64,000 nucleotides of DNA from assembly GCA_041651155.1 (NCBI GenBank), contig JBAZJU010000001.1, forward strand, positions 27,932 to 91,931, in the 5' to 3' direction. Within the stretch, counting starts at the first letter, position 1. The number at the start of each line of letters is the position of its first letter. Under the pieces are notes generated by a model. That model did not search any database. It was not told where the DNA came from and saw only the letters and a program-made list of their open reading frames with translations. Shown here in pieces: positions 6,568 to 63,914 of the stretch. Made by a program: the position numbers and the translations under genes. Source of the DNA: Patescibacteria group bacterium. Its GTDB lineage: Bacteria > Patescibacteriota > Patescibacteriia > CAIXNZ01.

Positions 6568-9348
6568 ATGAAAGAAATCCCCAAGGCCTACGATCCCAAA
6601 GAAGTTGAGGATAAAATTTATAAGTTATGGGAAGAATCAGGTTATTTTAATCCTGACAATTTGCCAGGTAATCGGCCTGATTATTTTTCCATTGCTATGC
6701 CGCCGCCAAATAGAACCGGTACCTTGCATACCGGCCATGCTTCCATGCTTGCTTATCAGGATTTAATGACGCGTTATAACCGGCTGGCAGGTAAAAAAAC
6801 TTTATGGCTGCCAGGCACTGATCATGCGGCGATCGCCACCCAAACTAAAGTTGAAAAAATTTTATATAAGGAGGAAAAGAAAACGCGCTATGATTTGGGA
6901 AAAGAAAAATTTTTAAAAAAAGTTGCTGAATTTGCAGAGGAATCTAAAAAAACAATTAATAATCAGGTGCGCAAAATGGGCTCATCCTGCGACTGGTCGC
7001 GTGAACGTTATACTTTGGATGATGGCTTAAACCAAGTAGTTAAATATGCTTTTGTGAAAATGCATGACGCTGGCTTGATCTATCGCGGTTATCGCATTGT
7101 TAATTGGTGCCCGCGTTGCGCTTCAACTCTGGCTGATGATGAAGTTGAATATGTGGCAACCAAAACAAAATTTTATACTTTCAAATATGCAAAAGATTTT
7201 CCGATTTCAATTTCCACTACCCGGCCTGAAACAAAATTGGGTGATACTGCAGTAGCTGTTAATCCCAAAGACCAGCGTTATAAAAAATTTATAGGTAAAA
7301 CATTTACAATAGATTTAGGCCATGGCAAACAGAAAATTAAAATTGTGGCTGATGAGTCAGTTGACCCCAAATTTGGCACAGGCGCTCTTGGCGTTACGCC
7401 TGCCCATTCTTTTGTGGATTTTGAAATTGCCCAAAAAAATAAATTGCCATTGATAAAAGTAATAGGCGAGGATGGCAAAATGACCAAAGAGGCAGGCAAG
7501 GATTATGAGGGATTAACGGTTTTAAAAGCCAGAGAAAAATTCGTGGCCTGGTTGGAAAAAAATAAATTAATGGACAAGGTGGAAGAAGTTGAACAAAATT
7601 TGAGCGTGTGTTATCGTTGCAATTCACTGATTGAACCTCTGCCCTCATTACAGTGGTTTGTGGACGTCAATAAAAAAATAACTTTAAAAGGCAATAAATA
7701 TTTCCAGAAAAAATCTCTCAAAGAAGTTGCCTTGCAGGTTGTGAAGGATAATGAAATAAAAATAATTCCCCAAAGATTTGAAGCAAATTATTTTCACTGG
7801 CTGGAAAATTTGCGCGATTGGTGCATTTCCCGCCAGATTTGGTTTGGGCATCAGATTCCCGTGTGGTACAGATCCTCCTCCGCTAAAGCTTCGGAGGACG
7901 GGGGTAAGGAAATTTATGTTGGGCTAGAAGCGCCAAAAGAAAAAGGATTTAAACAGGATGAAGATACTTTGGATACTTGGTTTTCATCTGGGCTGTGGAC
8001 TTTTTCAACATTATTAGATAAAGATTTTAAAAAATATAAATCTTGGGAGGATTGGATTAATGGTTCTAAGGATTTAGAATTTCATCCGACTTCAGTCATG
8101 GAAACTGGTTATGATATTTTATTTTTTTGGGTGGCACGCATGATTATCCAGACCACTTTCATGCTCGGTCAGATTCCATTTAAAAATGTTTATTTACATG
8201 GTTTGGTGCGCGATGAAAAAGGCAAAAAAATGTCCAAATCCTTGGGTAATGTGGTTGATCCTTTGGATATGATTAAAAAATTCGGCACTGATGCTCTGCG
8301 TTTGGCCATGATTTCAGGCACTTCAGCTGGTGCTGATTCGCGCTTGTATGATGAAAAAGTTGAGGGCAGCCGCAACTTTGTGAATAAGCTTTGGAATATA
8401 TCCCGTTATATTTTAACTTCAGTGCGCGAAGTCAGGCGAGTTGAGGAAATTCCTCATGGTGAAACTCTGGCTGACCAGTGGATTTTGGCAAAATTGGATT
8501 TGGTGATTAATGAAGTGACAGCAGATATTAATAAATTTAATTTTCCCGGGGCGGTTGAGGCTTTGCGCGAATTTACCTGGTCTGATCTGGCTGACTGGTA
8601 TTTGGAAATATCAAAATTGCAGATCAAAGAAAGTCCTGATAAACCTTATGAAGAATTAGGCGTGCATACTGAGACAATTTTACTTTATGTTTTGGAAAAA
8701 CTTTTAATTTTATGGCATCCGTTTATTCCTTTTGTGACAGAAGATATTTGGTCAAATTTTGAAGACGAGGATTTATTGATGATTCAGCCTTGGCCTTTAG
8801 TGACTGATAAAGAATTATTTACTGACATTAAAGATAGAGAATATCATGAGGAAACAGATAAGCTTTTGGATTACGATGAAATTTTGTATCCTTTTTATAA
8901 ATTTGAAGAAATTGTCATGACCATCAGAAATTTGCGCTCTGATTTTAAAATTGAACCAGCGAAAAAGGTTGAGGTCACAATTGTTGGGAAAGATTTAGAT
9001 AAAATAAAATTAAATGAACAAATTGATAATATAATTTATCTGGCTCGTTTGAATAATTTAGAAATCGGGAAAATTAAACCAGATAATTCTGTGTCTCATG
9101 TTTTGGAAGGAGTGGGTGAGATTTGTTTACATTTGCAGGGTCTCGTTGATTTGCCAAAAGAAAAAGCTCGTTTGGAAAATGAAATTGCCAGCGTTAAAAA
9201 ATATGCGCAATCTTTGGCACAAAAATTAAAGAATAAAGAGTTTACAAAAAAAGCGCCTAAGGATGTGGTGGAGAAAGAGCAAGAGAAATTAAAGCAACAG
9301 CAAGAGAAATTGGTGAAATTGGAAGAACAATTGAATAGCTTGAAATAG
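6568..9348 (+). CDS. valS: valine--tRNA ligase
   Basis: HIGH-region PPPNRTGTLHTGHA, KMSKSLGN motif, and a C-terminal coiled coil. Start placed at ATG 6568 (MKEIPKAYDPKEV). Confidence 0.9.
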   Translation: MKEIPKAYDPKEVEDKIYKLWEESGYFNPDNLPGNRPDYFSIAMPPPNRTGTLHTGHASMLAYQDLMTRYNRLAGKKTLWLPGTDHAAIATQTKVEKILYKEEKKTRYDLGKEKFLKKVAEFAEESKKTINNQVRKMGSSCDWSRERYTLDDGLNQVVKYAFVKMHDAGLIYRGYRIVNWCPRCASTLADDEVEYVATKTKFYTFKYAKDFPISISTTRPETKLGDTAVAVNPKDQRYKKFIGKTFTIDLGHGKQKIKIVADESVDPKFGTGALGVTPAHSFVDFEIAQKNKLPLIKVIGEDGKMTKEAGKDYEGLTVLKAREKFVAWLEKNKLMDKVEEVEQNLSVCYRCNSLIEPLPSLQWFVDVNKKITLKGNKYFQKKSLKEVALQVVKDNEIKIIPQRFEANYFHWLENLRDWCISRQIWFGHQIPVWYRSSSAKASEDGGKEIYVGLEAPKEKGFKQDEDTLDTWFSSGLWTFSTLLDKDFKKYKSWEDWINGSKDLEFHPTSVMETGYDILFFWVARMIIQTTFMLGQIPFKNVYLHGLVRDEKGKKMSKSLGNVVDPLDMIKKFGTDALRLAMISGTSAGADSRLYDEKVEGSRNFVNKLWNISRYILTSVREVRRVEEIPHGETLADQWILAKLDLVINEVTADINKFNFPGAVEALREFTWSDLADWYLEISKLQIKESPDKPYEELGVHTETILLYVLEKLLILWHPFIPFVTEDIWSNFEDEDLLMIQPWPLVTDKELFTDIKDREYHEETDKLLDYDEILYPFYKFEEIVMTIRNLRSDFKIEPAKKVEVTIVGKDLDKIKLNEQIDNIIYLARLNNLEIGKIKPDNSVSHVLEGVGEICLHLQGLVDLPKEKARLENEIASVKKYAQSLAQKLKNKEFTKKAPKDVVEKEQEKLKQQQEKLVKLEEQLNSLK
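7876..7898. repeat. mini-hairpin element (TCCTCCG-CTAAAGCTT-CGGAGGA) inserted in-frame in valS
   Basis: The 15-nt core CGCTAAAGCTTCGGA is identical to the element at 11949-11976 and is related to copies at 4247-4272 and 37330-37352. It encodes SSAKASED in a variable region before the DTWFSS motif. Confidence 0.5.
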
Positions 9349-19933: not shown

Positions 19934-20404
19934 ATGAAAAAAAATAATTTTTGGCTTGTTTTGGTTCTGTTAGCTGCAGTAGCAATCGGTCTGGGGTTGA
20001 GTGTTCTTAGGGAGCATTACGTACAATATAAGTACCACCAGCAATATTGCGAAGAGTTGTTGGATAGCTCAGCCCCTAACACTGGTTATCCAAAAAACTA
20101 TAGTGCCATGCGCCAGTATTATCACTGCGTACTGTCGCTTAATGAAGATGTGAATTGCTATCAAAAATACCGTCAGGAAATAATCGATTGTCAGCAATCG
20201 AGCAAAGAAAAGATGTCAGAGGAAGAAATAAAACGCCATTTAGCTGGCGGAGCCATTGAAGAAATTTGTCAGGACACTGCAAAATTATGCACCGAGAGCC
20301 AAAAGGAATTTACCGGTGATGAAGATTTAAAAAAAGCAATGCTAATACTTTGCATAGAAAAGACCAGGAAAGCCTGCACTGACCTAGGCATTGAATGGAA
20401 ATAA
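19934..20404 (+). CDS. small secreted/membrane-anchored Cys-rich protein, family copy A
   Basis: 156 aa. N-terminal TM or signal segment with 8 Cys. The C-terminal half is near-identical to 26056..26520. Confidence 0.5.
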   Translation: MKKNNFWLVLVLLAAVAIGLGLSVLREHYVQYKYHQQYCEELLDSSAPNTGYPKNYSAMRQYYHCVLSLNEDVNCYQKYRQEIIDCQQSSKEKMSEEEIKRHLAGGAIEEICQDTAKLCTESQKEFTGDEDLKKAMLILCIEKTRKACTDLGIEWK

Positions 20405-20444
20405 AAATAGCCCCGTTATAACAAACGGGGCTTAATTTTTTTGA

Positions 20445-21179
20445 TTAGTTGAATTTAATCTTGTCGCGATATTTTGGATCTATGCTTTCCCGGAAAACCT
20501 TGGGAAAATATGGTTTTAGCTTCTGGTAAAAAGAAACGTCCGTTTTCATTAAATCCTCAAATGTTGCCAGGGAGGTTGCTGTTTTAAGGTCAACGTGGAA
20601 AAGCTCCATTAATTGGCAAACATTAGGATTAGTCTGCTTTAAAAAATTATTTTTTTGAGCAAAAGATGTTTCTGCCAACTTAGCGCCATCTTCGTCAAGG
20701 TAAACAATCTTCGTGCCTTCTTCTAATGAGATTGTTTTCTCTTTTTCAGGACTGATTTTAATGTCATGGTAAATATGATAGTGCTCATGGACTAGTACGC
20801 ACCAGAGTTCTTCCTGTCTAGCCGTTTGAAAAGATCTGAGGCTGATTTCCAGAGTTTTATTTTTAGGATCATATTTTGCTGGTACTTTCATTACTCCGGT
20901 AATAATGCCCAAAGTTAATTGGTTGTTATTGAGCAGATCATAATAGTCAGCTTTGACTTTTGCATCAGGCAAAGTATCCAGAGCATGGTAAAAAGGCTCG
21001 CTGGCCGCTTCCATCTGACTTTGATTATGGGAGAGATAGATTATGCCCCCAAAAATAATAACAATAATGGGAATAGACACATAGAAAATTTTGTTGCTTT
21101 TTGTCTGGCAACTGCAATTTTTGATTTTTTGCCTGCATTTGGGACACTTGTTGTTTGGTGATTTTTTCACTTTAATCAC
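20445..21179 (-). CDS. membrane-anchored putative zinc metallopeptidase (N-terminal zinc ribbon, TM, HExxH motif)
   Basis: 244 aa. Contains CPKCRQKIKNCSC, a TM segment, and VLVHEHYHIYHD (HExxH). Confidence 0.5.
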   Translation of the reverse strand: MIKVKKSPNNKCPKCRQKIKNCSCQTKSNKIFYVSIPIIVIIFGGIIYLSHNQSQMEAASEPFYHALDTLPDAKVKADYYDLLNNNQLTLGIITGVMKVPAKYDPKNKTLEISLRSFQTARQEELWCVLVHEHYHIYHDIKISPEKEKTISLEEGTKIVYLDEDGAKLAETSFAQKNNFLKQTNPNVCQLMELFHVDLKTATSLATFEDLMKTDVSFYQKLKPYFPKVFRESIDPKYRDKIKFN

Positions 21180-21284
21180 TCCTTTCTAAATAGATTTTGT
21201 CAAAGGACTTAATAGTCCTAAATGTTTAATATTAGCAATAAAATGAGAAAAAGTCAAGGGTAATGTAATGATATGTAATAATAA

Positions 21285-21317
21285 ATAAATCCCAATCATT
21301 TTTGACTGGGATTTTTT
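21285..21317 (+). promoter_or_regulatory. conserved leader hairpin + U-run (copy 1 of 3) upstream of Cys-rich secreted protein genes
   Basis: aATCCCAatcatttttgacTGGGATttttttt. Near-identical copies at 25933-25963 and 26923-26952. Each lies 90-110 nt upstream of a paralogous gene start. Confidence 0.4.
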
Positions 21318-21396
21318 TATCACACTTGTAAAAATTTTTCATTGATGATATTTTGAAATAAATTAGTTTGAAGGTATTCTTTTAACAAAGGAGGAA

Positions 21397-21831
21397 ATGA
21401 TGGAAAAATTTGCGTCTAAGACAATCTTGGTTCTAATTATTTTAAGCTTGGGAGGATTTATTTTAATTTTTTCTGTAAAAGATTCCCCCCAATTTGACAG
21501 CCAGAAACAAATTAACCAGAAAGTAAATATTCTTTCTGAACAAGAAAAATGTGAGACATCGTTGTCGTCCTTAACCCAAAAAAGACCCTTTTGCCAAGAT
21601 TTGAATTTTTGTCCTGAACCATGCTGGCCAGAACTCAGAGCAGAAATTACTCATTGTTTACAATTAAAAGGGGAATCTGTTAACCCTGAAAAGATCGAAG
21701 GATATTTAAAAAATAATTTTCCACCTGCATGGTTCGCAGAATCAAGAGCAGCTTGTAAAAGTTGGGCTAAAACAGATCAGGAGCTCAAAGACTGTTTGCG
21801 TGGCTATGAGCAAACTTGTTCAAAAAAATAG
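21397..21831 (+). CDS. small secreted Cys-rich protein
   Basis: 144 aa. N-terminal TM or signal segment, 9 Cys. RBS AAAGGAGGAAATG. Confidence 0.5.
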   Translation: MMEKFASKTILVLIILSLGGFILIFSVKDSPQFDSQKQINQKVNILSEQEKCETSLSSLTQKRPFCQDLNFCPEPCWPELRAEITHCLQLKGESVNPEKIEGYLKNNFPPAWFAESRAACKSWAKTDQELKDCLRGYEQTCSKK

Positions 21832-21893
21832 TGCTTCTTATTATAAAGAGCCAATACCCCATAAAAATTTGGGGTATTTTTTTATTACAATCA

Positions 21894-26055: not shown

Positions 26056-26520
26056 GTGAAGAAAAAGATTGCTCTGGTGATAGTAATCGTCCTAATAATT
26101 AGCACCTTGCTTTTACTCAAACAAAAATATCAAGAGTACAAATATAGAAAGCATTACTGTGAATTATTATTAAACGGTTCCGATCCTTACCGAGGCTTCC
26201 CTAAGGGTTATGCCATCCGTCAGTACTATCATTGCATCATGTCTGATCAAGCTTATAGAGAAAATACCAATTGTTACCAGCAATATCGCCAGGAAATAAT
26301 TGATTGTCAGCAATCAAGTGAAAAAAAGATGTCAGAAGAAGAGATAAGGCGGCATTTGACTGGCGGAGCAATGGACGAAATTTGCCAGGATACTGCAAAA
26401 TTATGCACCGAGAGCCAAAAGGAATTTACCGGTGATGAAGATTTAAAAAAAGCAATGCTAATCCTTTGCATAGAAAAGACCAGGAAAGCCTGCACTGACC
26501 TAGGCATTGAATGGAAATAA
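26056..26520 (+). CDS. small secreted/membrane-anchored Cys-rich protein, family copy B (GTG start)
   Basis: 154 aa. The C-terminal roughly 40 aa and 3' flank are about 97% identical at the DNA level to 20278-20590. Confidence 0.55.
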   Translation: MKKKIALVIVIVLIISTLLLLKQKYQEYKYRKHYCELLLNGSDPYRGFPKGYAIRQYYHCIMSDQAYRENTNCYQQYRQEIIDCQQSSEKKMSEEEIRRHLTGGAMDEICQDTAKLCTESQKEFTGDEDLKKAMLILCIEKTRKACTDLGIEWK

Positions 26521-26560
26521 AAATAGCCCCGTTATAACAAACGGGGCTTAATTTTTTTGA

Positions 26561-26703
26561 TTAGTTGAATTTAATCTTGTCGCGATATTTTGGATCTATG
26601 CTTTCCCGGAAAACCTTGGGAAAATATGGTTTTAGCTTTTGGTAAAAAGATATGTCTGTTTTCATTAAATCCTCAAATGTTGCCAGGGAGGTTGCTGTTT
26701 TAA
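26561..26703 (-). pseudogene. 3' fragment of a HExxH metallopeptidase gene (truncated copy of 20445..21179)
   Basis: Encodes ...KTATSLATFEDLMKTDISFYQKLKPYFPKVFRESIDPKYRDKIKFN. Homology ends abruptly at about 26700 at a TTAA microhomology junction. Confidence 0.6.
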
Positions 26704-26900
26704 CCAGTAAACACTGGGGAAAGGGTATTACTACTGAAGCATTTAAAAAAATATTAGTCATTGCCAAAAGAAATAAAATAAAATATGTTTCTTGTACTAT
26801 ATCCAAAAATAATAAATCCTCTTTGGGCATCTGGCAAACATATTGTGCTAGAATTAAAAGAAATAAAGATAATATAATACCGTTTATAAAGTTGCGATGA
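26704..26900 (+). pseudogene. 3' fragment of a GNAT acetyltransferase gene (truncated copy of 22942..23415)
   Basis: Encodes LTSKHWGKGITTEAFKKILVIAKRNKIKYVSCTISKNNKSSLGIWQTY...IPFIKL, homologous to residues ~92-157 of the intact GNAT. Confidence 0.55.
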
Positions 26901-27013
26901 TAATTTATTTTTTAAAGAAAAAATTCCAATCATTTTTGCTGGGGTTTTTATATTTGCTTTTTTCCTAATAAAATAGTAAATTAAAACAAAACTTGTTCTT
27001 CAAAGGAGGAGAA

Positions 27014-27460
27014 ATGAGAAAAAATATATTTCTGTGTATTCTTTGCTTTTCTTTGGTATTTCTGGCCGGAGGGAAAAAAACCGAGACAGACGAGCTTGAA
27101 GAGCTGATTTTATCATATAAATCACAAGGCGTGTCTATCTCAAAGGAAGAATTTTGCCAAGATTATCTTGATTATGTGTCCCAAAGAGAATATCTGCACT
27201 GCGGCCTAGCACCTAATCAGGTTGATTGCCAGTCCTATGTGATTAAGATGACTAAGCTATGTTTAAAAACGAAAGGACTGGAGCCAAACAATGATAATGT
27301 AGATAAAGTCATGGCAAAATTTTTAAGCGAAGATATCTTTTGCGAATTTTTGCAAAAGAAAATTAACGAGGTGAGCACTGAATCTGAGAAAGACGTCCTT
27401 AATATGTTAAAGGTGCAGTTTGAAACCGCAGCGAAAAAAAAGGTTAATTGCGCCAAATAA
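27014..27460 (+). CDS. small secreted Cys-rich protein
   Basis: Start at ATG 27014 after CAAAGGAGGAGAA. Signal peptide MRKNIFLCILCFSLVFLAGG. 9 Cys. Confidence 0.5.
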   Translation: MRKNIFLCILCFSLVFLAGGKKTETDELEELILSYKSQGVSISKEEFCQDYLDYVSQREYLHCGLAPNQVDCQSYVIKMTKLCLKTKGLEPNNDNVDKVMAKFLSEDIFCEFLQKKINEVSTESEKDVLNMLKVQFETAAKKKVNCAK

Positions 27461-27505
27461 ATCAATTTACCCTGATAATCTCAGGGTATTTTTTTGCACA
27501 AACCA

Positions 27506-27534
27506 TTGACTTATTGAAAATTTTGTGCTAAGAT
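27506..27534 (+). promoter_or_regulatory. sigma70-like promoter TTGACT-17 nt-TAAGAT, duplicated module copy 2
   Basis: Near-identical to 21894-21922, with the same downstream RBS AAAGGAGGTGAAAAAAGTG. Confidence 0.45.
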
Positions 27535-27585
27535 TGGATATTAAAATCAAAACGAATTGACGTACCTTGAAAGGAGGTGAAAAAA

Positions 27586-28371
27586 GTGAAAAAGAAGCAA
27601 AGGATGAAGAGGCAATTAGATAAGCGCTCAAAATTCAAGAATTCTGCCATCCCTGTAAGTAAAACACAAAATCCAAGTAAAAGAAAAAGCATATATTTAT
27701 TGGTAGTTATATTCTGCGTCTTAGCGCTTGGCTTGATCTTGACAATAGTAAAAAGCGCAAATGCACCAGTAAATAAAGACACCACAGAGATCGGGTCGCA
27801 ATTGGAAGGCAAGGCAGCGATTGATAGATTTATGCAATTGCTTGCCAGTTTGCCAGACGATGATGCCCGCAACAACCTTTATGAGCAGATAAGCCGGAGA
27901 GGCTTAAGGTTAGAGCCTTATTCAGGCGAATATGTTATGGAATTCAAACCAAAGATTTCTGTTCTACGGTTTAATCCAGGCATACTTTCTTATCAAGAAG
28001 GTTACATCTGGTCGTATATGGTTCATGAAAATAGGCATATTGAAGATTGGCAAAATAAGCATGAGTCAGGCAAACTGTACTTGCCCTGCGAGATGGAAAG
28101 ATATATTTCCCATCAATGTAAAATAGAATGGTGGGAGGCTGAATTCAGGGCAGTTCAACAGCAAACGATTTTTCTGAAAAAAAATAATTTGGCGCAAGCC
28201 ATGCCTACTGGCCCCAGGGTAAATAATCGGGCAATATTTGAAAATAATAATGTTCGCCTGGCTGCGCTGATATTCTTACGGAATAATTATTATGAAAGTA
28301 AATCGCGATCACCTGATCTGCTGGAAGTTTTTCCGGAATTTTACGCAAAAAAATTAGCTGAAATCAGCTAG
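27586..28371 (+). CDS. membrane-anchored putative zinc metallopeptidase (HExxH), paralog of 20445..21179
   Basis: N-terminal basic region plus a TM segment. Contains MVHENRHIEDW (HExxH) and CxxxxC/HQC motifs. Start GTG 27586 (track ORF starts at 27577). Confidence 0.5.
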   Translation: MKKKQRMKRQLDKRSKFKNSAIPVSKTQNPSKRKSIYLLVVIFCVLALGLILTIVKSANAPVNKDTTEIGSQLEGKAAIDRFMQLLASLPDDDARNNLYEQISRRGLRLEPYSGEYVMEFKPKISVLRFNPGILSYQEGYIWSYMVHENRHIEDWQNKHESGKLYLPCEMERYISHQCKIEWWEAEFRAVQQQTIFLKKNNLAQAMPTGPRVNNRAIFENNNVRLAALIFLRNNYYESKSRSPDLLEVFPEFYAKKLAEIS

Positions 28372-37001: not shown

Positions 37002-37075
37002 TGGGCGCTGGAGGGATCGAACCCCCGACCTACTCGGTGTAAACGAGTCGCTCTAACCAGCTGAGCTAAGCGCCC
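37002..37075 (-). tRNA. tRNA-Val (anticodon TAC)
   Basis: Reverse-complement folds as GGGCGCT/AGCGCCC acceptor, anticodon stem ACTCG/CGAGT with loop TTTACAC, and T-arm GGGGG TTCGATC CCTCC. Confidence 0.8.
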
Positions 37076-37211
37076 TGGAATAACTAATAACTTATAACTA
37101 TAACAATAACTCTTGGTATGCGCTTAGCGAAGCTGGTTGCCGTCCGTAAATACTTTAATTCACAACTGCCTGCCTGCCGTAGCTTTAGCGAAGGCAGGAG
37201 CTAAGCGCCCT
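37076..37211 (-). repeat. tRNA-Val-leader repeat unit A (136 nt)
   Basis: Minus-sense begins GGGCGCTTAGCTC, the first 13 nt of tRNA-Val(TAC). It is followed by the hairpin CCTGCC-TTCGCTAAAGCTACG-GCAGG, then GCAGGCAG, then the box AACCAGCTTCGCTAAGC. Confidence 0.5.
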
Positions 37212-37376
37212 AGAATAACTAATAATTTATAACGATAACAATAACTTTTGTAAGGAGCTTAGCGAAGCTGGTTATCACCCATAAATACATACTAACCAAA
37301 CTGCCTGCCTGCCGTAGCTTTTTTATCCGCCGAAGCTTTAGCGTAGGTGGAAGCGAAGGCAGGAGCTAAGTGCCCT
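37212..37376 (-). repeat. tRNA-Val-leader repeat unit B (165 nt), with nested mini-hairpin insertion
   Basis: Begins GGGCACTTAGCTC. Same architecture as unit A, plus an extra CCACCTACGCTAAAGCTTCGGCGG element inserted in the hairpin loop. Confidence 0.5.
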
Positions 37377-37482: not shown

Positions 37483-38190
37483 TTAATTTATATTATCAAG
37501 TATATTAAAAATTTTCAAGCGTTTTCTTCGTAAACATGGTATTTTATCTGAATAATAAATTTTTTTTAGTAAAATTTTCGATTCATTCTTGGCATATTTT
37601 AGTTGATATATTGTAGATTTTTTGGCATGAGTAATGTGCCCATTTAGATTAATAATTTGTTTGATACTTTTCCTTAACCATAAAATATGTTGTTTGCTTG
37701 CAGACACGAAAGTCGTATAAAACATTAAACTTGATTTCCAGCGTTTATCCCAATAAGAATAAAAGGAACCATCTCCATCAAAGTGACCTCTTAAAAAATC
37801 AAAAAAATATTGTTTAGGAATTTTTATGTCATTTAATATTTTCGTTTTGTTTGGCATTAACCCTATGCTTAATAAGAATTTATAAAAATTAACATCCCCA
37901 AATTGAATTACATAATATTTTTTTATTTTATTTCCACCCCGCGATTTTTTACCAATTTTGTTCGTTAATTTTAATATTTTTTTGAATTTTAAAACAAGCT
38001 CTTTGTCCTTAGATGTAAAGTGAATGTGCCTCTTATCAGATGAAAGATTTCCATCGGTTGTAATTAGTCCAATAATATAGGCAAACTCTGGAGCCCATTT
38101 AATTAAAATTTTTGATTGTGGTTTTGACATAATTATCTCAAATTCAAAGCGTCTGCCAATTTTATTATATAATATTTTTACTCTTAACAC
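37483..38190 (-). CDS. LAGLIDADG-family homing endonuclease (two-motif, free-standing)
   Basis: Two LAGLIDADG motifs: FAYIIGLITTDGNL and FLRGHFDGDGSF. Stop codon is 8 nt from the tRNA-Leu 5' end. Confidence 0.75.
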   Translation of the reverse strand: MLRVKILYNKIGRRFEFEIIMSKPQSKILIKWAPEFAYIIGLITTDGNLSSDKRHIHFTSKDKELVLKFKKILKLTNKIGKKSRGGNKIKKYYVIQFGDVNFYKFLLSIGLMPNKTKILNDIKIPKQYFFDFLRGHFDGDGSFYSYWDKRWKSSLMFYTTFVSASKQHILWLRKSIKQIINLNGHITHAKKSTIYQLKYAKNESKILLKKIYYSDKIPCLRRKRLKIFNILDNIN

Positions 38191-46758: not shown

Positions 46759-48150
46759 ATGCCCAAATTCGCCAAAACAATTGAATATCTTTTTTACCTT
46801 TTTATTTTTTCTTTACCCTGGCAAACCAGGTGGATTTGGCATTATGGCAGTTTAAATGGGGGGCAAAGCGAATATCTGACTTTTAGTTTGTATGCTACGG
46901 AAATTCTGCTTTGGCTGATTTTGTTTTTGACAATAATTTACAAAATTAAAATTAAGGATGAGGAAGCCGGGATTTTAAATTATAAAATTCTGGATTTTTA
47001 TATTTTATTTGGCTTGTTAGTAATTGTATCGGGCTTATCAATAATTTGGGCTCAAGATAAACAAGTGGCATTTTATTATTTAATAAAAATGCTGGAAGGC
47101 TTGGCGCTGCTGATTTTTATTATTAATTTTAAGCTTAGTTTTAAAAAAGTTGGCTTAGCAATTGTCGCCTCTGGTTTTGTCCAGGGAGTTTTAGCAATCT
47201 CCCAATTTGTATCTCAAAAAGTTTGGGTTAGCAAATGGCTGGGCATGGCTGAACAGCTGACGCAAACACTCGGGACTTCAGTAGTTGAAGCAAATGGAAC
47301 AAGATGGTTGCGCGCGTATGGTTCTTTTGCCCATCCTAATATCTTGGCTGGTTGTTTAGTTGTCAGTTGTTTGTTTTTAGTTGTCTTATTAATCTTGTCC
47401 AAACACAAATGGGAAAAAGTTTTTTTGTGGATTTGCTGGCCAATAATCTTGGCTGGTTTATTTTTTACTTTTTCCAAAAGCGCATTTTTAGCCTTGGGAA
47501 TTGGCTTTCTGTTTTTAAGCATATTTATTTTTTTAAGTTATGAAAATAAAGCTAAAATTATTTTGAGCCAGTTAATTGGCAGCGGATTTTTGGTTTTGGC
47601 TGTTTTGACTTTATTTTACAGCCAGTCGGTTTTTACGCGTATAAATGGGGAGGAGAGGCTGGAACAAAAATCAATGACTGAACGCACTCTTTATTTTGAA
47701 CAAGCCAAAGATTTAATTCAGGCCAATTGGCTTAAAGGCGTTGGCTTGGGCAATTATACTTTAGCTTTATTTAATTATTTGCCAGCCAAACAGCCTGTCT
47801 GGTTTTATCAGCCTGTACATAATGTTTATGTTTTGGCAGCGGTTGAGCTGGGCATTTTAGGTTTTATAATTTTTGTGTTGATCATTATTAATATTTTAAG
47901 AAAAATTTGGGATTTTAAAATTGATTATAATCTGAAATTGCTGGCTATTTTTCGGAATTTTAAATCTAAGGAAATATATCATCACTATAAAAATCATTTT
48001 TTCTGGTTTTTGGGTCTTACAGGAGTTTTGATCGCGATTTTAATTTTAATGGCCTTTGATCATTTTTTTTGGACAATGTGGTTTGGGATTGCGTTGTGGT
48101 GGATGTGTTTGGGGTTGTGGTTGAAGGGGACACAAATTAACACGAATTGA
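46759..48150 (+). CDS. O-antigen ligase / Wzy-family polytopic membrane protein
   Basis: At least 10 TM helices. FTFSKSAFLALGIGFLFL resembles the O-antigen ligase domain. Confidence 0.5.
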   Translation: MPKFAKTIEYLFYLFIFSLPWQTRWIWHYGSLNGGQSEYLTFSLYATEILLWLILFLTIIYKIKIKDEEAGILNYKILDFYILFGLLVIVSGLSIIWAQDKQVAFYYLIKMLEGLALLIFIINFKLSFKKVGLAIVASGFVQGVLAISQFVSQKVWVSKWLGMAEQLTQTLGTSVVEANGTRWLRAYGSFAHPNILAGCLVVSCLFLVVLLILSKHKWEKVFLWICWPIILAGLFFTFSKSAFLALGIGFLFLSIFIFLSYENKAKIILSQLIGSGFLVLAVLTLFYSQSVFTRINGEERLEQKSMTERTLYFEQAKDLIQANWLKGVGLGNYTLALFNYLPAKQPVWFYQPVHNVYVLAAVELGILGFIIFVLIIINILRKIWDFKIDYNLKLLAIFRNFKSKEIYHHYKNHFFWFLGLTGVLIAILILMAFDHFFWTMWFGIALWWMCLGLWLKGTQINTN

Positions 48151-48226
48151 AAACGAATTTAGGAAAATAAAAAACCCGCCGTTGCTTCTTTTGAAGTTCC
48201 GGCGGGTGATTTGTTGAAGCAGTTAA

Positions 48227-48583
48227 TTAACTGCCAGCATACTTGAAGTTGATTCCCCAAGCGTGTTTAGCGACGGTGACGTTGCCGTCAACCATTAATG
48301 TGCTCTGGTTGGTGAAATCCGGCAGCCAATGGTTGGTGTTTGGAAGATGAACTGCAAATTCACAGCCCGGAGTCATGTCTTTTTTGTTGATTTTGATTGT
48401 CCCCTGGCCTACGCCCATCATTTCCCATTCACTGGTTTTGCAGTCGCCATAAAGTACCCATTGATCATGTTTGTCCAGATTTATCTGGATCGTCTCGGTG
48501 GACTTTTTGTGGGCGAAGAAAAACAAGCCAGAAAGAGTCGTTACCGAAATGACAATAGCGAACACTAACACGATTTTTTTCAT
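48227..48583 (-). CDS. cassette ORF 1: small secreted protein, hypothetical
   Basis: 118 aa. N-terminal signal or TM segment. Confidence 0.45.
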   Translation of the reverse strand: MKKIVLVFAIVISVTTLSGLFFFAHKKSTETIQINLDKHDQWVLYGDCKTSEWEMMGVGQGTIKINKKDMTPGCEFAVHLPNTNHWLPDFTNQSTLMVDGNVTVAKHAWGINFKYAGS

Positions 48584-48736
48584 TCTTTTTCCTCCTAGAA
48601 AAATTTTTACTTTTTCAAAAGGGCAAAGCCCTTTACTATCCTCGTCTCAAGATGAAATATTTTAATATTACATCCTGGGATGAGGCGGGCGATCTTTTTA
48701 GACCGCCCGCGGTTTTGTTTGAATTAAGAATACAGA
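48584..48736 (-). repeat. conserved intergenic cassette module, copy 1
   Basis: Shares the hairpins GGGCAAAGCCC and CGTCTCAAGACG, plus the GC-rich hairpin GCGGGCGGTC..GATCGCCCGC, with four other copies. Module ends in the RBS AGGAGGA. Confidence 0.55.
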
Positions 48737-49498
48737 TTACTCGTTATCACCTGTTAACGCCGATCTGTATTCTATCAGAGGACAGACCTTTTCTTTCTTG
48801 GCATGAATAAATTCCGTAACCAAGTCGATTGTTTTGCTGTCTTTCCCCTGAAATAATCCGGTTATAATCACGGCTACGTACTGGATAAAGATCCAGCTAA
48901 TAATCAATAGCACTGTGGCAAAAAAGAAGTCCACTATGCCCTCATAGTAGAACCCAAAGTTTGCTATCTTTTGATTGTAGCTATGAAGGAAAGCCAGGCT
49001 CGTGATTATCACCGCTGGTATTATTGAAAATGCCAGTACTTTATTTTCGGTGCCCGAGTCTAATCCCTCGATAGTCCTTAGGTAGTATTTGTAGGTAAGG
49101 CGGAACCCTAAGAATGTTACAATCGCGAGGGTTACCGATAGAAGAAAGATCCAATTGAAATTTTTGTCCTTTTCTTCTTGTCCCGGCTGATACCACTCCC
49201 GCTCATCAGGCGTTTTTAACCGCCAGTGAGTATTTTCAACCAGATTTCCCTCAGTAGAATGATTGTAGCTTTTTTCTGCCACGAAGTATTTGTCAACGAT
49301 TTTGGGTTGAATTACTTCCTGGTTAAGCAAATAGCCAGCGCCAATCACCATAAAAATTGTTGCGATTAGAGCGGGAATCACTGCCAAGCCAAGCAGAACG
49401 TTTCTGACTAAAGTCCAGACGTATGAACATAGGTCAGTTGGTTTCTCCCTCGTCAACTTTACTATTCTGTAATGCCACGATTTTTCAGAAATTCTCAT
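48737..49498 (-). CDS. cassette ORF 2: polytopic membrane protein, hypothetical
   Basis: 253 aa. 5-6 TM helices. Confidence 0.45.
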   Translation of the reverse strand: MRISEKSWHYRIVKLTREKPTDLCSYVWTLVRNVLLGLAVIPALIATIFMVIGAGYLLNQEVIQPKIVDKYFVAEKSYNHSTEGNLVENTHWRLKTPDEREWYQPGQEEKDKNFNWIFLLSVTLAIVTFLGFRLTYKYYLRTIEGLDSGTENKVLAFSIIPAVIITSLAFLHSYNQKIANFGFYYEGIVDFFFATVLLIISWIFIQYVAVIITGLFQGKDSKTIDLVTEFIHAKKEKVCPLIEYRSALTGDNE

Positions 49499-49648
49499 TC
49501 TTTCCTCCTTGGAAATTTTTGTATTTACTTTTCAAAAAGGGCAAAGCCCTTTACTATCCTCGTCTCAAGACGAAATAATTTACTCGAAACTATTCCGTCC
49601 TGGGATGAGTGGGGCGATCTTTGCAGACCGCCCATAAGCTGGTTTTGT
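49499..49648 (-). repeat. conserved intergenic cassette module, copy 2
   Basis: Near-identical to copy 5 (51621-51772). Confidence 0.55.
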
Positions 49649-50227
49649 TCAGAAGTAGTAGGAGAATTTTCCGTTTTCGTTCGTGAAACCGACGGTTTTC
49701 TTGAGCAGTTTACAGCTTCCTGCGCCGTCGCAGAATTCGAGAGAATAGGGAGTGGCTATCAGGTAGCTGTATATGGGCAACTGGGGTTCGATAAGGTGCT
49801 CATTTAACCAGTAGGCCGTGGGTAAGCCAATTACAATTTCTATCGGTGGGGTATAGATTTTAAAAACCCCACCACTAAGCCTGTATGCTTCGAGATCAAG
49901 CGTCGTCTGGGTATTCCCCTTTGGATCTTTTCGGTAAAAGACGAAGAAAGCTTTGGCGGGTTGGCTGTTTGTTTCCGTGATTTCCAGGTTGCTCAGATCG
50001 TAGATCCTGTCGCTTACCTGCATCAGTTCTTTCACGACCCAATCGTTGCTTTCCTGTCTGGCCTGTTTTGCCTTGTTGAGCTGCCAGTTATAGCCGAGAT
50101 AGAGGCCGAAGGGAATGACAATCAGCGTTAAAATCAAATTGATTATAACGATTAGGCACCCACAGCCTCTTTTTTCTACGACCACGATTCTTTCCTTTTC
50201 TACCTCTTCAATTTCTTTTTCTTCCAT
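49649..50227 (-). CDS. cassette ORF 3: single-TM extracytoplasmic protein, hypothetical
   Basis: Start moved to ATG at 50225-50227 (MEEKEIEEV), which is preceded by AAAAAGGAAAA. Track ORF is 49649..50320. Confidence 0.4.
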   Translation of the reverse strand: MEEKEIEEVEKERIVVVEKRGCGCLIVIINLILTLIVIPFGLYLGYNWQLNKAKQARQESNDWVVKELMQVSDRIYDLSNLEITETNSQPAKAFFVFYRKDPKGNTQTTLDLEAYRLSGGVFKIYTPPIEIVIGLPTAYWLNEHLIEPQLPIYSYLIATPYSLEFCDGAGSCKLLKKTVGFTNENGKFSYYF

Positions 50228-50373
50228 TTGTACATTTTCCTTTTTCGTTTCTGAATTTTTGAAAGAGCAAAGCTCTTTTATTTTCCTCATCTCAAGACAA
50301 AATAATCTACACGAGACCATCCTGTCCTGAGATGAGGGGGGATCGGAAGATCCCCTGTATGAATTTGCCGATG
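50228..50373 (-). repeat. conserved intergenic cassette module, copy 3
   Basis: Variant with AGAGCAAAGCTCT hairpin and GGGGGGATCG..GATCCCCT hairpin. Confidence 0.5.
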
Positions 50374-50826
50374 CTATTCGTTCGGCTCGAGGTTTTGATT
50401 GTACTTTTCAATCAGGTTGATGATCTCTGTGATTGTATCATCATCTTCACCCGATGTAATTGGGTAAGGCCCTGATTTAGAATCTTCTCCCGGGTCATCG
50501 TCTTCATATCTGACCCTTCCCGAAACGAAAACAATTTTGTCGTTTTCATTTTTGATTCTTACGGAGTAAAAACTCCGCATTTCAAAGTTGCCCTGTCTGG
50601 TATGGTTAAGGTGATATTGGGAAAGTTTTTTATCTTCAGAATCTCCCTCCTCAATTTCCCAACCAGTAAAAACTTGGACTTCTCGGTTTCCGATTTTTTC
50701 TACGACGTGTCTTTTCCGATGTTTTAGTACACCATCATGGCCTTCGTTGCATTGGGAAAGAGGGATTTCTCTCCCGCATCTTTTGCATCGGCCAAATGGT
50801 ACGATTTCAGTTTTATAGATTTCCAT
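50374..50826 (-). CDS. cassette ORF 4: acidic cytoplasmic protein with Cys4-type motif, hypothetical
   Basis: 150 aa. Contains PFGRCKRCGREIPLSQC. Paralog of ORF 5. Confidence 0.45.
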   Translation of the reverse strand: MEIYKTEIVPFGRCKRCGREIPLSQCNEGHDGVLKHRKRHVVEKIGNREVQVFTGWEIEEGDSEDKKLSQYHLNHTRQGNFEMRSFYSVRIKNENDKIVFVSGRVRYEDDDPGEDSKSGPYPITSGEDDDTITEIINLIEKYNQNLEPNE

Positions 50827-51029
50827 CTTTCCTCCTTTGAAATTTTTTTAAAGAGCATAGCTCTTTTTCTATCCTCGTCTCAAGACGAAATGATCTACTA
50901 GAGACCATCCCGTCCTGAGATGAGGGGGGATCGTTGGATCCCCTATGTCGCGGGCGATCTTCGTTAAGACCGCCCGCGAGCTTTGTCAGCGATTGCTACA
51001 CATCGCAAAGGGTTTCTTAATTTAAAACC
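50827..51029 (-). repeat. conserved intergenic cassette module, copy 4
   Basis: Carries both the GGGGGGATCG-type hairpin and the GCGGGCGATC..GACCGCCCGC hairpin. Confidence 0.5.
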
Positions 51030-51620
51030 TTAAGAGTTGCGATATTTTTGAATGAACCCAAGAATCTTCGTGATGATTTTTTCACTTTCCTGTGGATGTA
51101 GAGGTAATGGGCCTGGATCAGACCGAAGCTCGATAAATTCTTCTTCCTCGTCATCAGCATCTTCACATTCATATGTGCCTGAAACGAAGATAATATCGTT
51201 ATTAACCTTTTTTACAGTGATGTAGAAGGTTTCAACTCGAAGATTTTTCACATCACAATTATGGATAATACGATATTCGGAAAGGCTTTTATCTTCAGCT
51301 TCAACATGGATATCAGAAGCATCTGATTGCATGACGCCAGCAACTAGCATCTTGAAAAGCGTGGCCAGGGTTTTTTCTTCAGAATTTACTTCCTCAATAT
51401 CCCACGTTAAGGTCGTTTCACGTTCACCTTCGATCGGCCTAACAATACATAGGTTTGATAATGTAACCATCCCCCAGGGAATAGCATGATTATGGTACAT
51501 TTGCATCCGCGGTGACTCACTTTCCAGATCTGGCCACTCTTCGCACACTGAAAGTGGAATTTCACCACACTCCTCACAGCATCCATAGGGCTCTAATATT
51601 TGTTCATGAATCCTCAACAT
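51030..51620 (-). CDS. cassette ORF 5: acidic cytoplasmic protein with Cys4-type motif, paralog of ORF 4
   Basis: 196 aa. PYGCCEECGEIPLSVC; IIFVSGTYECEDADD aligns with IVFVSGRVRYEDDD of ORF 4. Confidence 0.45.
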   Translation of the reverse strand: MLRIHEQILEPYGCCEECGEIPLSVCEEWPDLESESPRMQMYHNHAIPWGMVTLSNLCIVRPIEGERETTLTWDIEEVNSEEKTLATLFKMLVAGVMQSDASDIHVEAEDKSLSEYRIIHNCDVKNLRVETFYITVKKVNNDIIFVSGTYECEDADDEEEEFIELRSDPGPLPLHPQESEKIITKILGFIQKYRNS

Positions 51621-51772
51621 ATTTCCTCCTAGAAAATTTTTCGTATTTAATTTTCAAAAAGGGCAAAGCCCTTTACTATCCTCGTCTCAAGACGAAATAA
51701 TTTACTCGAAACTATTCCGTCCTGGGATGAGTGGGGCGATCTTTGCAGACCGCCCGCGGGGTTGTTTGTGTA
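51621..51772 (-). repeat. conserved intergenic cassette module, copy 5
   Basis: Near-identical to copy 2. Confidence 0.55.
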
Positions 51773-52138
51773 TCACCTGATTTTTGCGACGCGGTGCCAG
51801 GTGGTGATGACCTCTACATCATAAATTGGCAGATCGTCATCTCCTGGTTCGTCATCAAAAGTCGAAAGATAGCTCAGGTCAAAGACCTTTCCATAGTCGG
51901 CCTTTCTCGGTGAATATTTTTCCGGTTCCCTTCTTACAAGGATTGAGTTGGTATCGTCTATCCAGGCCAGATATTTGGCCAGACAGATAGGGCATCGCGC
52001 TTCGGCAACGAGCATTCCTTTGTATTTGTTGTCAAAGTAAACGCCGGCTTCCTTTTCGGTTATGGGTCTTGGTTCTTCTAACAGTTCCACTGGATGTTCG
52101 CAATGAACGCATGCGGTCGCACCTAAGTTTCGGCTCAT
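51773..52138 (-). CDS. cassette ORF 6: zinc-ribbon-like protein, hypothetical
   Basis: 121 aa. CVHCEHP ... CPIC. Confidence 0.4.
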   Translation of the reverse strand: MSRNLGATACVHCEHPVELLEEPRPITEKEAGVYFDNKYKGMLVAEARCPICLAKYLAWIDDTNSILVRREPEKYSPRKADYGKVFDLSYLSTFDDEPGDDDLPIYDVEVITTWHRVAKIR

Positions 52139-52376
52139 TTTTTTCCTCCTTTAGAAATTTTTGGTTTATTCTTAGCCTTTTGGCTGGTTTTCATTTATAT
52201 TTTTAACCCAAAATGAATTGGGTGTTGTAAAATTACTGTTTATATAATAGCATACTTTTATAAAAAAGTCAAGGGTTTTGTGGGCTATTTTGTTAGAAAT
52301 TGGCCCTGAAAGGGCCCCTTTGGGGCTAAAATAAGCTATTTTTTAAAGATTTGCCTGGGAAGATAAAAAATTATTC

Positions 52377-53130: not shown

Positions 53131-53153
53131 CCCACTAAAGTGGGGTATAAAAT
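53131..53153 (+). promoter_or_regulatory. inverted repeat CCCAC-taaa-GTGGG + GTATAAAAT immediately upstream of groES (candidate operator / -10)
   Basis: 14-bp perfect IR followed by a TATAAA box. Ends 13 nt before the groES ATG. No CIRCE present. Confidence 0.4.
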
Positions 53154-53166
53154 TAAATTTAAAATT

Positions 53167-53457
53167 ATGTCTATGTACAAACCCTTAAACGATCACGTCT
53201 TAATCAAGCCAATCAATGGCAATGAAGTTTCCAAGGCCGGCATTATTTTGCCTGACACGGTTGACAAAGAAAAGCCAGAAAAAGGCGAAGTTGTGGCCGT
53301 AGGTTCTGGTAAACTTTTGGAAAATGGATCTAGAGCGCCAATGTCTGTTAAAGTCGGGGATAAGGTTATTTTTAAAAAATATTCACCGGACGAACTGCCG
53401 GGGGATGAAGATTTGATGGTGATAAAGGAGGAGGATATTCTTGCGATAATTCAATAA
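53167..53457 (+). CDS. groES: co-chaperonin GroES
   Basis: MSMYKPLNDHVLIKP...GEVVAVGSGK. Confidence 0.9.
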   Translation: MSMYKPLNDHVLIKPINGNEVSKAGIILPDTVDKEKPEKGEVVAVGSGKLLENGSRAPMSVKVGDKVIFKKYSPDELPGDEDLMVIKEEDILAIIQ

Positions 53458-53478
53458 TTTTTAATTTTTAATTTTTAA

Positions 53479-55128
<1,650 letters not shown>

Positions 55129-55170: not shown

Positions 55171-55205
55171 AAAAAAGATCGTCTGGAAATGGGCGGTCTT
55201 TTTGT
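55171..55205 (+). terminator. strand-specific terminator hairpin with G.U pairs (family copy 1): AAGATCGTCTGG-aaat-GGGCGGTCTT + T-run
   Basis: 10-bp RNA stem needs three G.U pairs, so it forms only on the plus-strand transcript. Followed by TTTTGTTTTTTT. Confidence 0.5.
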
Positions 55206-58404: not shown

Positions 58405-58518
58405 ATAGCAGAATTATAAAATAATTCCAAGGGACGATTAATTTCGTCCCTTTTTTGCTACGAATTTTAGGATCCTAATTTACAAATCTGCTACTAATCT
58501 ACGAATATTTCCAGTAAT

Positions 58519-58549
58519 AAAAAAATCGTCTGGTAATGGGCGGATTTTT
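58519..58549 (+). terminator. strand-specific terminator hairpin, family copy 2
   Basis: AAATCGTCTGG-taat-GGGCGGATTTTT. Confidence 0.45.
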
Positions 58550-63882: not shown

Positions 63883-63914
63883 AAAAAAGATCGCCAGGAA
63901 ATGGGCGGTCTTTT
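63883..63914 (+). terminator. strand-specific terminator hairpin, family copy 3
   Basis: AAGATCGCCAGG-aaat-GGGCGGTCTTTT. Confidence 0.45.

Follow-up and report, generated by a model that had tools for sequence, protein, structure and literature searches.

Sites for RNase III, such as those in the early mRNA of phage T7 and in the rnc and pnp leaders of Escherichia coli, are hairpins of about two helical turns that lie between cistrons or in 5' leaders; a transcript may carry several related sites, and their cleavage leaves the upstream mRNA with a 3' hairpin and sets the 5' end of the downstream one. Other hairpin-forming intergenic repeats, among them repetitive extragenic palindromes (REP/REPIN) and Correia/nemis elements, can be co-transcribed with genes and can affect mRNA processing or stability. 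In T4-type phages, promoter-early stem-loop (PeSL) cassettes combine a terminator stem-loop with a sigma-70-type promoter, with each gene forming its own transcription unit, and the insertions, deletions and replacements that distinguish related genomes end in the motif, which has been attributed to homologous recombination between copies (PMC2839356, PMC4122927). In plastids, the intercistronic expression element (IEE) directs the conversion of polycistronic transcripts into stable, translatable monocistronic units (PMC2230500). Here, we analyze five homologous intergenic modules of 143–203 nt that separate the six open reading frames (ORFs) of a gene array in a 64-kb stretch of DNA (64,000 nt; hereafter the window) from a Patescibacteria group bacterium, a member of the candidate phyla radiation (CPR). 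Folded as RNA of the gene strand, the module consists of three independent hairpins, P1, P2 and P3, and we class it as a structured mRNA leader that doubles as a shuffling regulatory cassette.

The module resembles the PeSL in being a short conserved regulatory motif repeated between the ORFans of a hyperplastic region, with turnover endpoints in the motif. It differs in that it carries no promoter, its P1 hairpin lacks a U-tract and its core, P2, is a 24-bp RNA hairpin inside what looks like one operon; moreover, PeSLs belong to phages, whereas the module resides in a CPR bacterial chromosome. Compared with RNase III sites, P2 has a stem of their kind, some 20 bp or longer (two branched variants fall short of this), but its lower stem is far more conserved than such a site needs, some copies are short or branched, and there is no sequence similarity. 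The IEE is likewise a short intercistronic RNA element, with the function we propose for the module; this comparison is functional only, since the IEE belongs to an organelle with a pentatricopeptide repeat (PPR)-type protein system and resembles the module in neither sequence nor structure. REP/REPIN and Correia/nemis elements are numerous, scattered and found in either orientation, whereas the module is strictly co-oriented with its genes and occupies two loci per genome as far as visible.

Fold and strand of the module

A first-pass annotation of the window had described a conserved module in five copies, with copies 2 and 5 near-identical and copies 3 and 4 sharing a variant. This description holds: the first pair corresponds to M4 and M1 (Table 1), which are 98% identical across 121 nt, and the second to M3 and M2. 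Homology between modules begins a few bases past the preceding stop codon, includes the Shine-Dalgarno site and reaches the start codon; for M1 and M4 it spans P1 to the start codon. The same annotation had placed the G+C content of the modules well above the local average. We find an excess only for the array as a whole (0.43 versus a window mean of 0.375), the modules (0.37–0.46) not standing out from the ORFs (0.41–0.475).

The core of the module is P2, a helix of about 24 pairs (CCUCAUCYCAGGACGGRAUAGUCUC-loop-GAGAUUAUUUYGUCUUGAGAYGAGG) whose lower stem of 12–13 bp, CUCAUCYCAGG/CYUGAGAYGAG, is nearly invariant; in M3, P2 is a perfect 24-bp helix. A covariance model of P2 (R1) recovers the five copies with 54–81 bits (E-values of 1e-12 to 1e-21) and detects no further one anywhere in the 64 kb of the window. 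The sequence CGTCTCAAGACG, which the first-pass annotation had taken for a separate hairpin, forms the 3' arm of P2; a small CGUC-UUGA-GACG hairpin is rejected on the strength of compensatory changes that support the long pairing.

Sequence variation supports this fold. Across 37 distinct full-length copies, the 24 pairs of P2 are 93% paired, compared with 41–53% in controls in which the 3' partners were slid by 1–3 columns. Eight pairs are changed on both sides, and none of 500 shuffles reached the observed covariation score. Among 55 distinct copies, pairing is 96% or higher at 12 of the 14 positions of the lower stem; pair 12·44 occurs as G·U (44 copies), A-U (6) and G-C (5), pair 14·42 as A-U (53) and G-C (2), and pair 4·52 as U-A (54) and G-C (1). 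Pair 18·38 in model numbering (18·40 in the alignment listing) is A-U in 18 and G·U in 17 copies. Because these exchanges obey RNA rules, G·U included, we read the element as sense-strand RNA. Five or six conserved G·U pairs of P2 would become A·C mismatches on the opposite strand, the covariance model scores about 80 bits in sense versus about 40 bits in antisense, and P2 as single-stranded DNA folds weakly on either strand (−7 to −14 kcal/mol). Two positions count against this strand assignment: 6·50 is A·C in 26 and A-U in 26 copies, 9·47 is C·A in 36 and U-A in 16 copies, and at both the opposite strand would have G·U. Rare G-C and C-G versions back pairing at these two positions, and the second unit of locus L018 (L018b; L numbers denote the loci compared here) shows compensatory changes from U-A to G-C at 4·52 and from C·A to C-G at 9·47. 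Judged by its pairing, the element is an RNA of the gene strand.

Outside the lower stem, the architecture is more variable. The upper stem of P2 is shortened in M5, L025b, L044a/b and L048, giving variants of 17–20 pairs that keep the lower stem, which is also kept in L013b and L049b, where a hairpin of about 40 nt is inserted into the 3' arm. The inserted hairpin (CCCAGCACC...GGUGCUGGG; L013 1567–1662 and L049 ~8400–8500, minus strand) lies at the boundary of upper and lower stem and would make a three-way junction. In L021b and L031b, the 5' arm of P2 is damaged and the sequence of the 3' arm retained. One leader of L018 (4383–4524, minus strand) carries two complete P1-P2 units in tandem, 30 nt apart, and in L049 (8050–8179, minus strand) a module has no ORF behind it but a terminator-like hairpin within about 75 nt, resembling an 'empty' leader beside an IS200-like element.

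P1 is a G+C-rich hairpin that adjoins P2 (0–3 nt) in 40 of 42 copies. Two sequence types are present in the window, both of them in M2, and many different sequences overall, about 15 by our reading; what is retained is the structure and not the sequence, with a mean energy of −13.7 kcal/mol versus −4.7 kcal/mol for shuffles. P1 of M1, M4 and M5 reads GCGGGCGGUCU-GCAA-AGAUCGCCC, and this hairpin followed by a U-tract (U6–7) is the array-terminal terminator in L013, L014, L021 and L031. By sequence, P1 is thus a terminator hairpin minus its U-tract. Internal P1 hairpins run into CCUCAUC instead and, lacking the U-tract, would not terminate; a terminator scan of the minus strand listed no module hairpin. 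Near-identical terminators (AAAAAAGATCGYCNGGAAATGGGCGGTCTTTT) also follow groEL and two other genes of the window (55171–55202, 58518–58549 and 63883–63914, plus strand), and their arms (GGGCGGTC/GATCGCC) recur in P1 of M1, M4 and M5 with the order swapped. P3 (AAAGRGCUWUGCYCUUU), 5–8 nt past P2, is followed by an A-rich spacer and AGGAGG. It has only four G-C pairs and a triloop and takes its consensus form in about half of the copies, with arms that are always matched (GAGC/GCUC in 11, GGGC/GCCC in 7 and GAGCC/GGCUC in 3).

Several other identities were considered for the module and rejected. An intrinsic terminator does not fit a P1 without a U-tract and a P3 that has few G-C pairs and is absent from about half of the copies. 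A sigma-70 promoter could use TTGAGA in the 3' arm of P2 as −35 hexamer, but no conserved −10 hexamer accompanies it, and an extracytoplasmic function (ECF)-type promoter, GGAAT-N19-CGTC, would place conserved bases at positions of P2 that vary as RNA pairs (A or G at 18, mostly U at 40). The 3' arm of P3, UGCUCUUUA, which we take to be boxA-like, is not retained as an antitermination signal: it covaries with its partner (GCUC/GAGC versus GCCC/GGGC), and half of the copies have no P3. For a riboswitch or attenuator, we saw neither an alternative P2-P3 pairing nor a junction resembling a ligand pocket. A self-cleaving ribozyme is disfavored because the conserved nucleotides form a plain helix, and no Rfam ribozyme matched.

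Position, relatives and gene turnover

All P2 copies found are co-oriented with the downstream gene, which has a Shine-Dalgarno site. P2 ends 34–90 nt ahead of the start codon, clear of both this site and P3. At no fewer than nine loci (L008, L013, L014, L016, L017, L021, L025, L031 and L046), the module starts 10–35 nt behind a near-consensus promoter, ahead of the first or only gene. Copies directly behind promoters, the co-orientation and the RNA covariation together argue for a 5'-leader or intercistronic RNA and not for a 3' cassette site. The module, which the first-pass annotation had described as following each ORF, is therefore better described as preceding one. The alternative raised there, conserved 5'-untranslated or regulatory RNAs on an accessory gene set, gains support from covariation, strand and leader position, and we consider it very likely that the module is a cis-acting RNA leader or intercistronic element.

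The modules themselves contain no conserved promoter; a single 9/12 match occurs in M2 and is not conserved, and the real promoters at module-bearing loci are near-consensus. In the window, the promoter upstream of ORF6 (Table 1) is the sole 10/12 match on the minus strand across the array and its upstream spacer, and its sequence also heads the homologous arrays in L013, L014, L017, L021, L025, L027, L031 and L035. With this one promoter and one canonical terminator, the six genes look like one operon, and the ORFs are promoterless, as had been suspected. The leader of ORF6 is of a different kind, with no P2, and it is portable as well: in L027 and L035, a homolog of this leader stands ahead of unrelated first genes, with homology that stops at the ATG.

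Relatives were collected in two ways. Exact-pattern scans for both arms of P2, which required the lower-stem sequence, found the element in four species-representative assemblies (by label, two Parcubacteria, one Falkowbacteria and one 'Gammaproteobacteria') and in 24 of the 30 metagenome stretches returned, and the covariance model located additional, diverged copies inside these loci. Seven further pattern matches, in one genome contig and in six metagenome stretches, arose by chance; of the numbered loci, L005, L007, L009, L023, L034 and L036 are chance matches of this kind, lacking the hairpin. Pattern-free loci, fetched via homologs of ORF3 and of the flanking Wzy_C protein, hold 15 more P2 copies with the same lower stem, two of which are the branched and the degenerate copy of L049. 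In total, we obtained 55 distinct P2 sequences from about 40 loci in genomes of the Parcubacteria group and in metagenomes; the closest named relative is Candidatus Buchananbacteria RBG_13_39_9. Between genomes, P2 is 87–93% identical, compared with 66–69% at the DNA level for the flanking Wzy_C genes. The 'Gammaproteobacteria' assembly (L006; CAYNWH010000018.1, labelled 'uncultured Gammaproteobacteria bacterium') is syntenic with the window, with a Wzy_C protein of about 62% identity and the same promoter and modules, and its bin label is probably wrong.

Searches of other collections gave no relatives. Pattern scans of IMG/VR yielded no true P2 match (five loose ones were chance and without a model score), and M3 matched nothing by blastn in the INPHARED phages and the PLSDB plasmids. 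Rfam 15 gave no match at the gathering score in the window and ten loci, and only chance-level matches at E-values up to 10 in the array region. A full-text literature search found no description of the element.

The element occurs in two genomic contexts. In the first, groES/EL (or a PDT-tyrA-aminotransferase block) is followed by a promoter, the array, a terminator and the convergent Wzy_C gene, on whose side the flanks (methyltransferase, UPF0102, NusA and YidC) are conserved. The content of this site varies from no genes and no model match (L047, L050 and L051) through one gene (L014) and two or three genes (L006, L021, L031, L044 and L046) to the six genes of the window and at least nine small genes with seven modules in L048. 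The gene most often common to the arrays is ORF3, with homologs in L006, L021, L031, L035, L037 and L038 that have different partners; an ORF2 homolog stands behind a module in L028. Hydrophobic segments were found in 19 of 35 array proteins, and a Pfam search of 17 array proteins from other loci gave one match, to Big_7 (an L045 protein). An IS200-like Y1 transposase gene lies between Wzy_C and the array end in L046 (8430–9063; Pfam Y1_Tnp, E-value 1.8e-6) and in L049 (7436–7984); the one in L046 is flanked by direct copies of TTTTACGGAYGGACACACTTCAGTGTGTTAYGGCTC, which is unrelated to the module hairpins.

In the second context, found at no fewer than eight loci, rpoC is followed by two tandem promoters, a leader of about 450 nt with a small ORF, the module, an ORFan of about 290 aa and a terminator. 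The small ORF has about 40 codons, and the ORFan has an acidic region and a basic tail (L004 4950–5560; L018, L022, L024, L026, L030 and L033). The long leader has no Rfam match and may be an unrecognized RNA or a second regulatory layer.

Comparison of arrays at the first site locates the boundaries of gene replacement. L021 and L031 share 97% identity over the promoter, a module, ORF3, a second module and a few codons of the next gene, which is unrelated thereafter (248 aa versus 189 aa), and 96% identity resumes at the terminator hairpin. The window's M3-ORF3-M4 segment is about 80% identical in both loci, with different genes on either side. Gene turnover at this site is real and precise to the ORF. 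Replacement endpoints lie at a module, a start codon or a terminator hairpin, and we think it somewhat probable that the turnover proceeds by recombination between modules. In this evolutionary sense, the cassette-like character that the first-pass annotation had proposed is retained: related genomes hold different ORFs between the same modules at the same site.

Proposed processing and its alternatives

How might such a module act? We propose that the five modules would be transcribed within a single polycistronic mRNA from the promoter upstream of ORF6, and that in each of them P2 would stack directly on P1. That a plain helix is so conserved in sequence speaks for a trans-acting factor that recognizes it, and the lower stem of P2 would be the site of this factor; the most plausible candidate would be RNase III or another double-strand-specific endoribonuclease with greater sequence specificity. 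Cleavage in P2 would turn the operon RNA into mRNAs of one gene each: the upstream one would be left with P1 as a protective 3' hairpin, a 3' structure as in a terminated transcript, and the downstream one would have P3 and a standard ribosome-binding site at its 5' end. Expression would then be uniform and independent of context for whatever ORF sits between two modules. The repeated leaders of about 120 nt and the shared hairpins would also supply homology, through which homologous recombination could replace, add or delete whole ORFs, and the Wzy_C–groES/EL site may thereby have become a hypervariable array of ORFans, many with membrane or secreted products. Endonucleolytic processing as the molecular function is a possibility that we hold with some reserve, both the cleavage and the identity of the factor being inferred, and recombination is suggested to be homologous rather than site-specific. 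The complete explanation, a processing leader together with recombination between modules, is put forward tentatively.

Several points weigh against it. The processing step is argued from design. A near-invariant lower-stem sequence is more than generic RNase III requires, and the insert of about 40 nt in L013b and L049b interrupts the continuous duplex. Promoter-proximal copies have a P1-type hairpin as well, with no upstream mRNA for it to protect. The conservation of the lower stem is in part ascertainment, because the pattern scans demanded its sequence. Finally, concerted evolution (M1 = M4) blurs the recombination endpoints, so these data cannot separate homologous from site-specific exchange.

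Instead of being cleaved, P2 might be the operator of a sequence-specific RNA-binding regulator, and the leader genes would then form one post-transcriptional regulon, controlled at translation, stability or local read-through, with P1 and P3 merely framing the site. This would suit a lower stem that is near-invariant in 55 copies next to an upper stem that may be long, short or branched, the presence of the element ahead of the unrelated conserved ORFan behind rpoC, and the retained 3' arm of L021b and L031b, in which the 5' arm is damaged. Yet P2 is well separated from the start codon, the Shine-Dalgarno site and P3, and neither simple occlusion nor a switch by alternative pairing is apparent. 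In the loci available, the arrays are not accompanied by a candidate regulator gene, and the array-linked proteins scanned have no Pfam match above the cut-off other than the Big_7 protein. Taken together, we regard a non-cleaving regulator as rather unlikely. Nor would a trans-acting factor be needed at all if the hairpins were a passive insulator that shields the ribosome-binding site from pairing with the upstream ORF, stops 3' exonucleases and masks C-rich RNA from Rho, its conservation being due to concerted evolution. The independence of the three hairpins, with no competing fold, their presence at every intercistronic junction of arrays with exchanged ORFs, and the near-identity of M1 and M4, which reflects homogenization within one array, all agree with this. 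However, concerted evolution within genomes fails to explain why P2 is so much better conserved than the flanking genes between genomes, or why the lower stem is fixed while P1, P3 and the upper stem vary, and we consider a purely passive role improbable.

The first-pass annotation had favored an integron-like organization, in which unrelated, promoterless, co-oriented ORFs each carry a structured, imperfectly palindromic site, as with attC sites or clusters of attC sites lacking an integrase (CALINs). The array has this general form, and further features agree with it: content at one chromosomal site varies between related genomes, empty sites exist, P1 equals the terminal terminator hairpin minus its U-tract, as if units had gone in between hairpin and U-tract, and the homology of the window with L021 has one endpoint at the P1/P2 junction. 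A cassette would then begin at P2, include the ORF and end at P1, and the exchange at this junction would be made by a recombinase encoded elsewhere, as in CALINs, which need no adjacent integrase. As the annotation itself had stated, classic attC cores are absent: a regular-expression search of both strands of 48150–52300 for R'' (RYYYAAC) and R' (GTTRRRY) found no pairs (shuffles, mean 0.9). P2 is moreover a bulge-free helix, without the extrahelical bases or central unpaired spacer of an attC site. Its G·U covariation favors sense RNA and its single-stranded DNA folds weakly, and the element also stands behind promoters, ahead of first or single genes. The type of P1 after ORF3 homologs differs by genome, so P1 does not travel with the ORF, and the L021/L031 swap ends a few codons inside an ORF and at the terminator hairpin instead of at P1/P2. 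The window was noted before to lack an integrase, and we recognized neither an integrase nor another recombinase in it (64 ORF translations read; Pfam on the six array ORFs and on ten unassignable ORFs, the latter giving a methyltransferase, a LAGLIDADG endonuclease and Wzy_C). For ten loci that came with gene tables, the called genes likewise include no tyrosine or serine recombinase. The Y1 transposase beside two arrays has, in L046, end hairpins of its own, unrelated to the module. Site-specific capture is accordingly very improbable in our view. So is the more particular idea that the P1/P2 junction is the crossover point of a new CPR gene-capture system, integron-like in function, in which ORF units bounded by P2 and a terminator-type hairpin would enter precisely between a resident hairpin and its U-tract and a Xer-type or HUH/Y1-type enzyme encoded elsewhere would act on hairpin DNA while the same sequence also serves as RNA leader; we give it an equally slim chance. 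Still more doubtful is a selfish miniature repeat of the REPIN, miniature inverted-repeat transposable element (MITE) or Correia type that spread into intergenic spaces and is merely co-transcribed. P2 would suit this in being a long inverted repeat, nearly perfect, conserved in sequence and present in many copies, and an IS200-family transposase gene adjoins the arrays of L046 and L049. Against this, all copies share a single orientation relative to the downstream gene and are restricted to two genomic contexts, with none in the window's other 60 kb; target-site duplications were not noticed, covariation preserves RNA pairing including G·U, and the element is absent from the phage, plasmid and IMG/VR collections searched.

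CPR bacteria (Patescibacteria) have tiny genomes, little known regulation and accessory genes that are mostly ORFans. Here, a new RNA motif, more conserved than the neighboring housekeeping genes, tags the genes at a hypervariable site, many of which have envelope-associated products, and its covariance model offers a means of searching metagenomes for variable genes of this kind and for their regulon. If the processing-leader explanation is correct, the module would be a natural plug-and-play unit with which a streamlined symbiont tries new genes at one safe chromosomal site, and a bacterial-chromosome counterpart of PeSL shuffling in phages. The sequence-specific lower stem would further imply an RNA-binding protein or nuclease in these organisms.

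The array and its surroundings

The coordinates of the array, its modules and its flanks are compiled in Table 1.

Table 1 Features of the array and its flanks in window coordinates; SD, Shine-Dalgarno site; bits, score of the P2 covariance model
Feature	Position	Strand	Details
groES-groEL	53140–55128	plus	Conserved flank on the side opposite Wzy_C; synteny
Sigma-70 promoter	52244–52272	minus	TTGACT, 17-nt spacer, TATTAT; TG before the second hexamer (extended −10); 10/12
ORF6 5' leader	52139–52243	minus	Two small hairpins, without P2; no match to the covariance model
ORF6	51773–52138	minus	121 aa; two CxxC pairs, zinc-ribbon-like; ORFan
Module M1	51621–51772	minus	P1 51734–51755; P2 51678–51733; P3 51658–51674; SD 51625–51630; 78.4 bits
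ORF5	51030–51620	minus	196 aa; acidic, Cys-rich N-terminus; ORF4 paralog
Module M2	50827–51029	minus	P1a 50950–50977; P1b 50926–50943; P2 50871–50926; P3 50850–50866; 80.5 bits
ORF4	50374–50826	minus	150 aa; ORF5 paralog
Module M3	50231–50373	minus	P1 50338–50355; P2 50283–50338; P3 50262–50278; SD 50238–50243; 80.9 bits
ORF3	49649–50230	minus	193 aa; single N-terminal transmembrane segment
Module M4	49499–49648	minus	P1 49612–49633; P2 49556–49611; P3 49536–49552
ORF2	48737–49498	minus	253 aa; polytopic membrane protein, four hydrophobic segments
Module M5	48584–48736	minus	P1 48685–48710; P2 48638–48686 (upper stem shortened); P3 48618–48634; 54 bits
ORF1	48227–48583	minus	118 aa; one N-terminal hydrophobic/signal segment
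Intrinsic terminator	48169–48206	minus	CCCGCCGG...CGGCGGG then U6; 3' of ORF1
Wzy_C gene, convergent	46759–48150	plus	O-antigen-ligase-like; Pfam Wzy_C, E-value 1e-14; conserved flank of the variable site

The six ORFs had been described as mutually unrelated except for ORF4 and ORF5, and clustering agrees: these two (29% identity, E-value 2e-17) are the sole related pair. The earlier protein descriptions, which ranged from secreted and membrane proteins to Cys-rich and zinc-ribbon proteins, hold roughly, with hydrophobic segments in ORF1 to ORF3 and CxxC motifs in ORF4, ORF5 and ORF6. The search for remote homologs in Pfam, PHROGs and PADLOC, which had been suggested with defense or cassette families in mind, gave one match, ORF2 to the phage 'membrane protein' family phrog_944 (PHROGs, E-value 9e-18), and no defense family. 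AlphaFold2 models of ORF3 (pLDDT 43; alignment of five sequences) and ORF5 (pLDDT 40; two sequences) were unusable. For ORF3, homologs and the spacing of the Shine-Dalgarno site favor the start at 50230; the start of the longest ORF (50320) would be an AUG within the P2 hairpin of M3. The public annotation of ORF3 (213 aa) implies a start 20 codons upstream (~50290), which also lies within P2 of M3.

Two further regions of the window caught our attention. On the minus strand, a LAGLIDADG homing-endonuclease gene (37483–38190; Pfam LAGLIDADG_3, E-value 3.9e-10) lies just upstream of a tRNA gene (37002–37075), with two 124-nt direct repeats (37063–37186 and 37198–37321; 83% identity) between the two. 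Group I introns have been reported in tRNA genes of Patescibacteria (PMC13011429); no Rfam intron matched, and the endonuclease gene and repeats may represent a homing or intron-type element beside the tRNA gene. The second region is a segmental duplication (19934–21831 versus 26056–28371) with small Cys-rich signal-peptide ORFs and conserved intergenic stretches, the latter being 91% identical at 20144–20443/26260–26559, 87% at 23218–23430/26700–26912 and 89% at 21872–21985/27484–27597.

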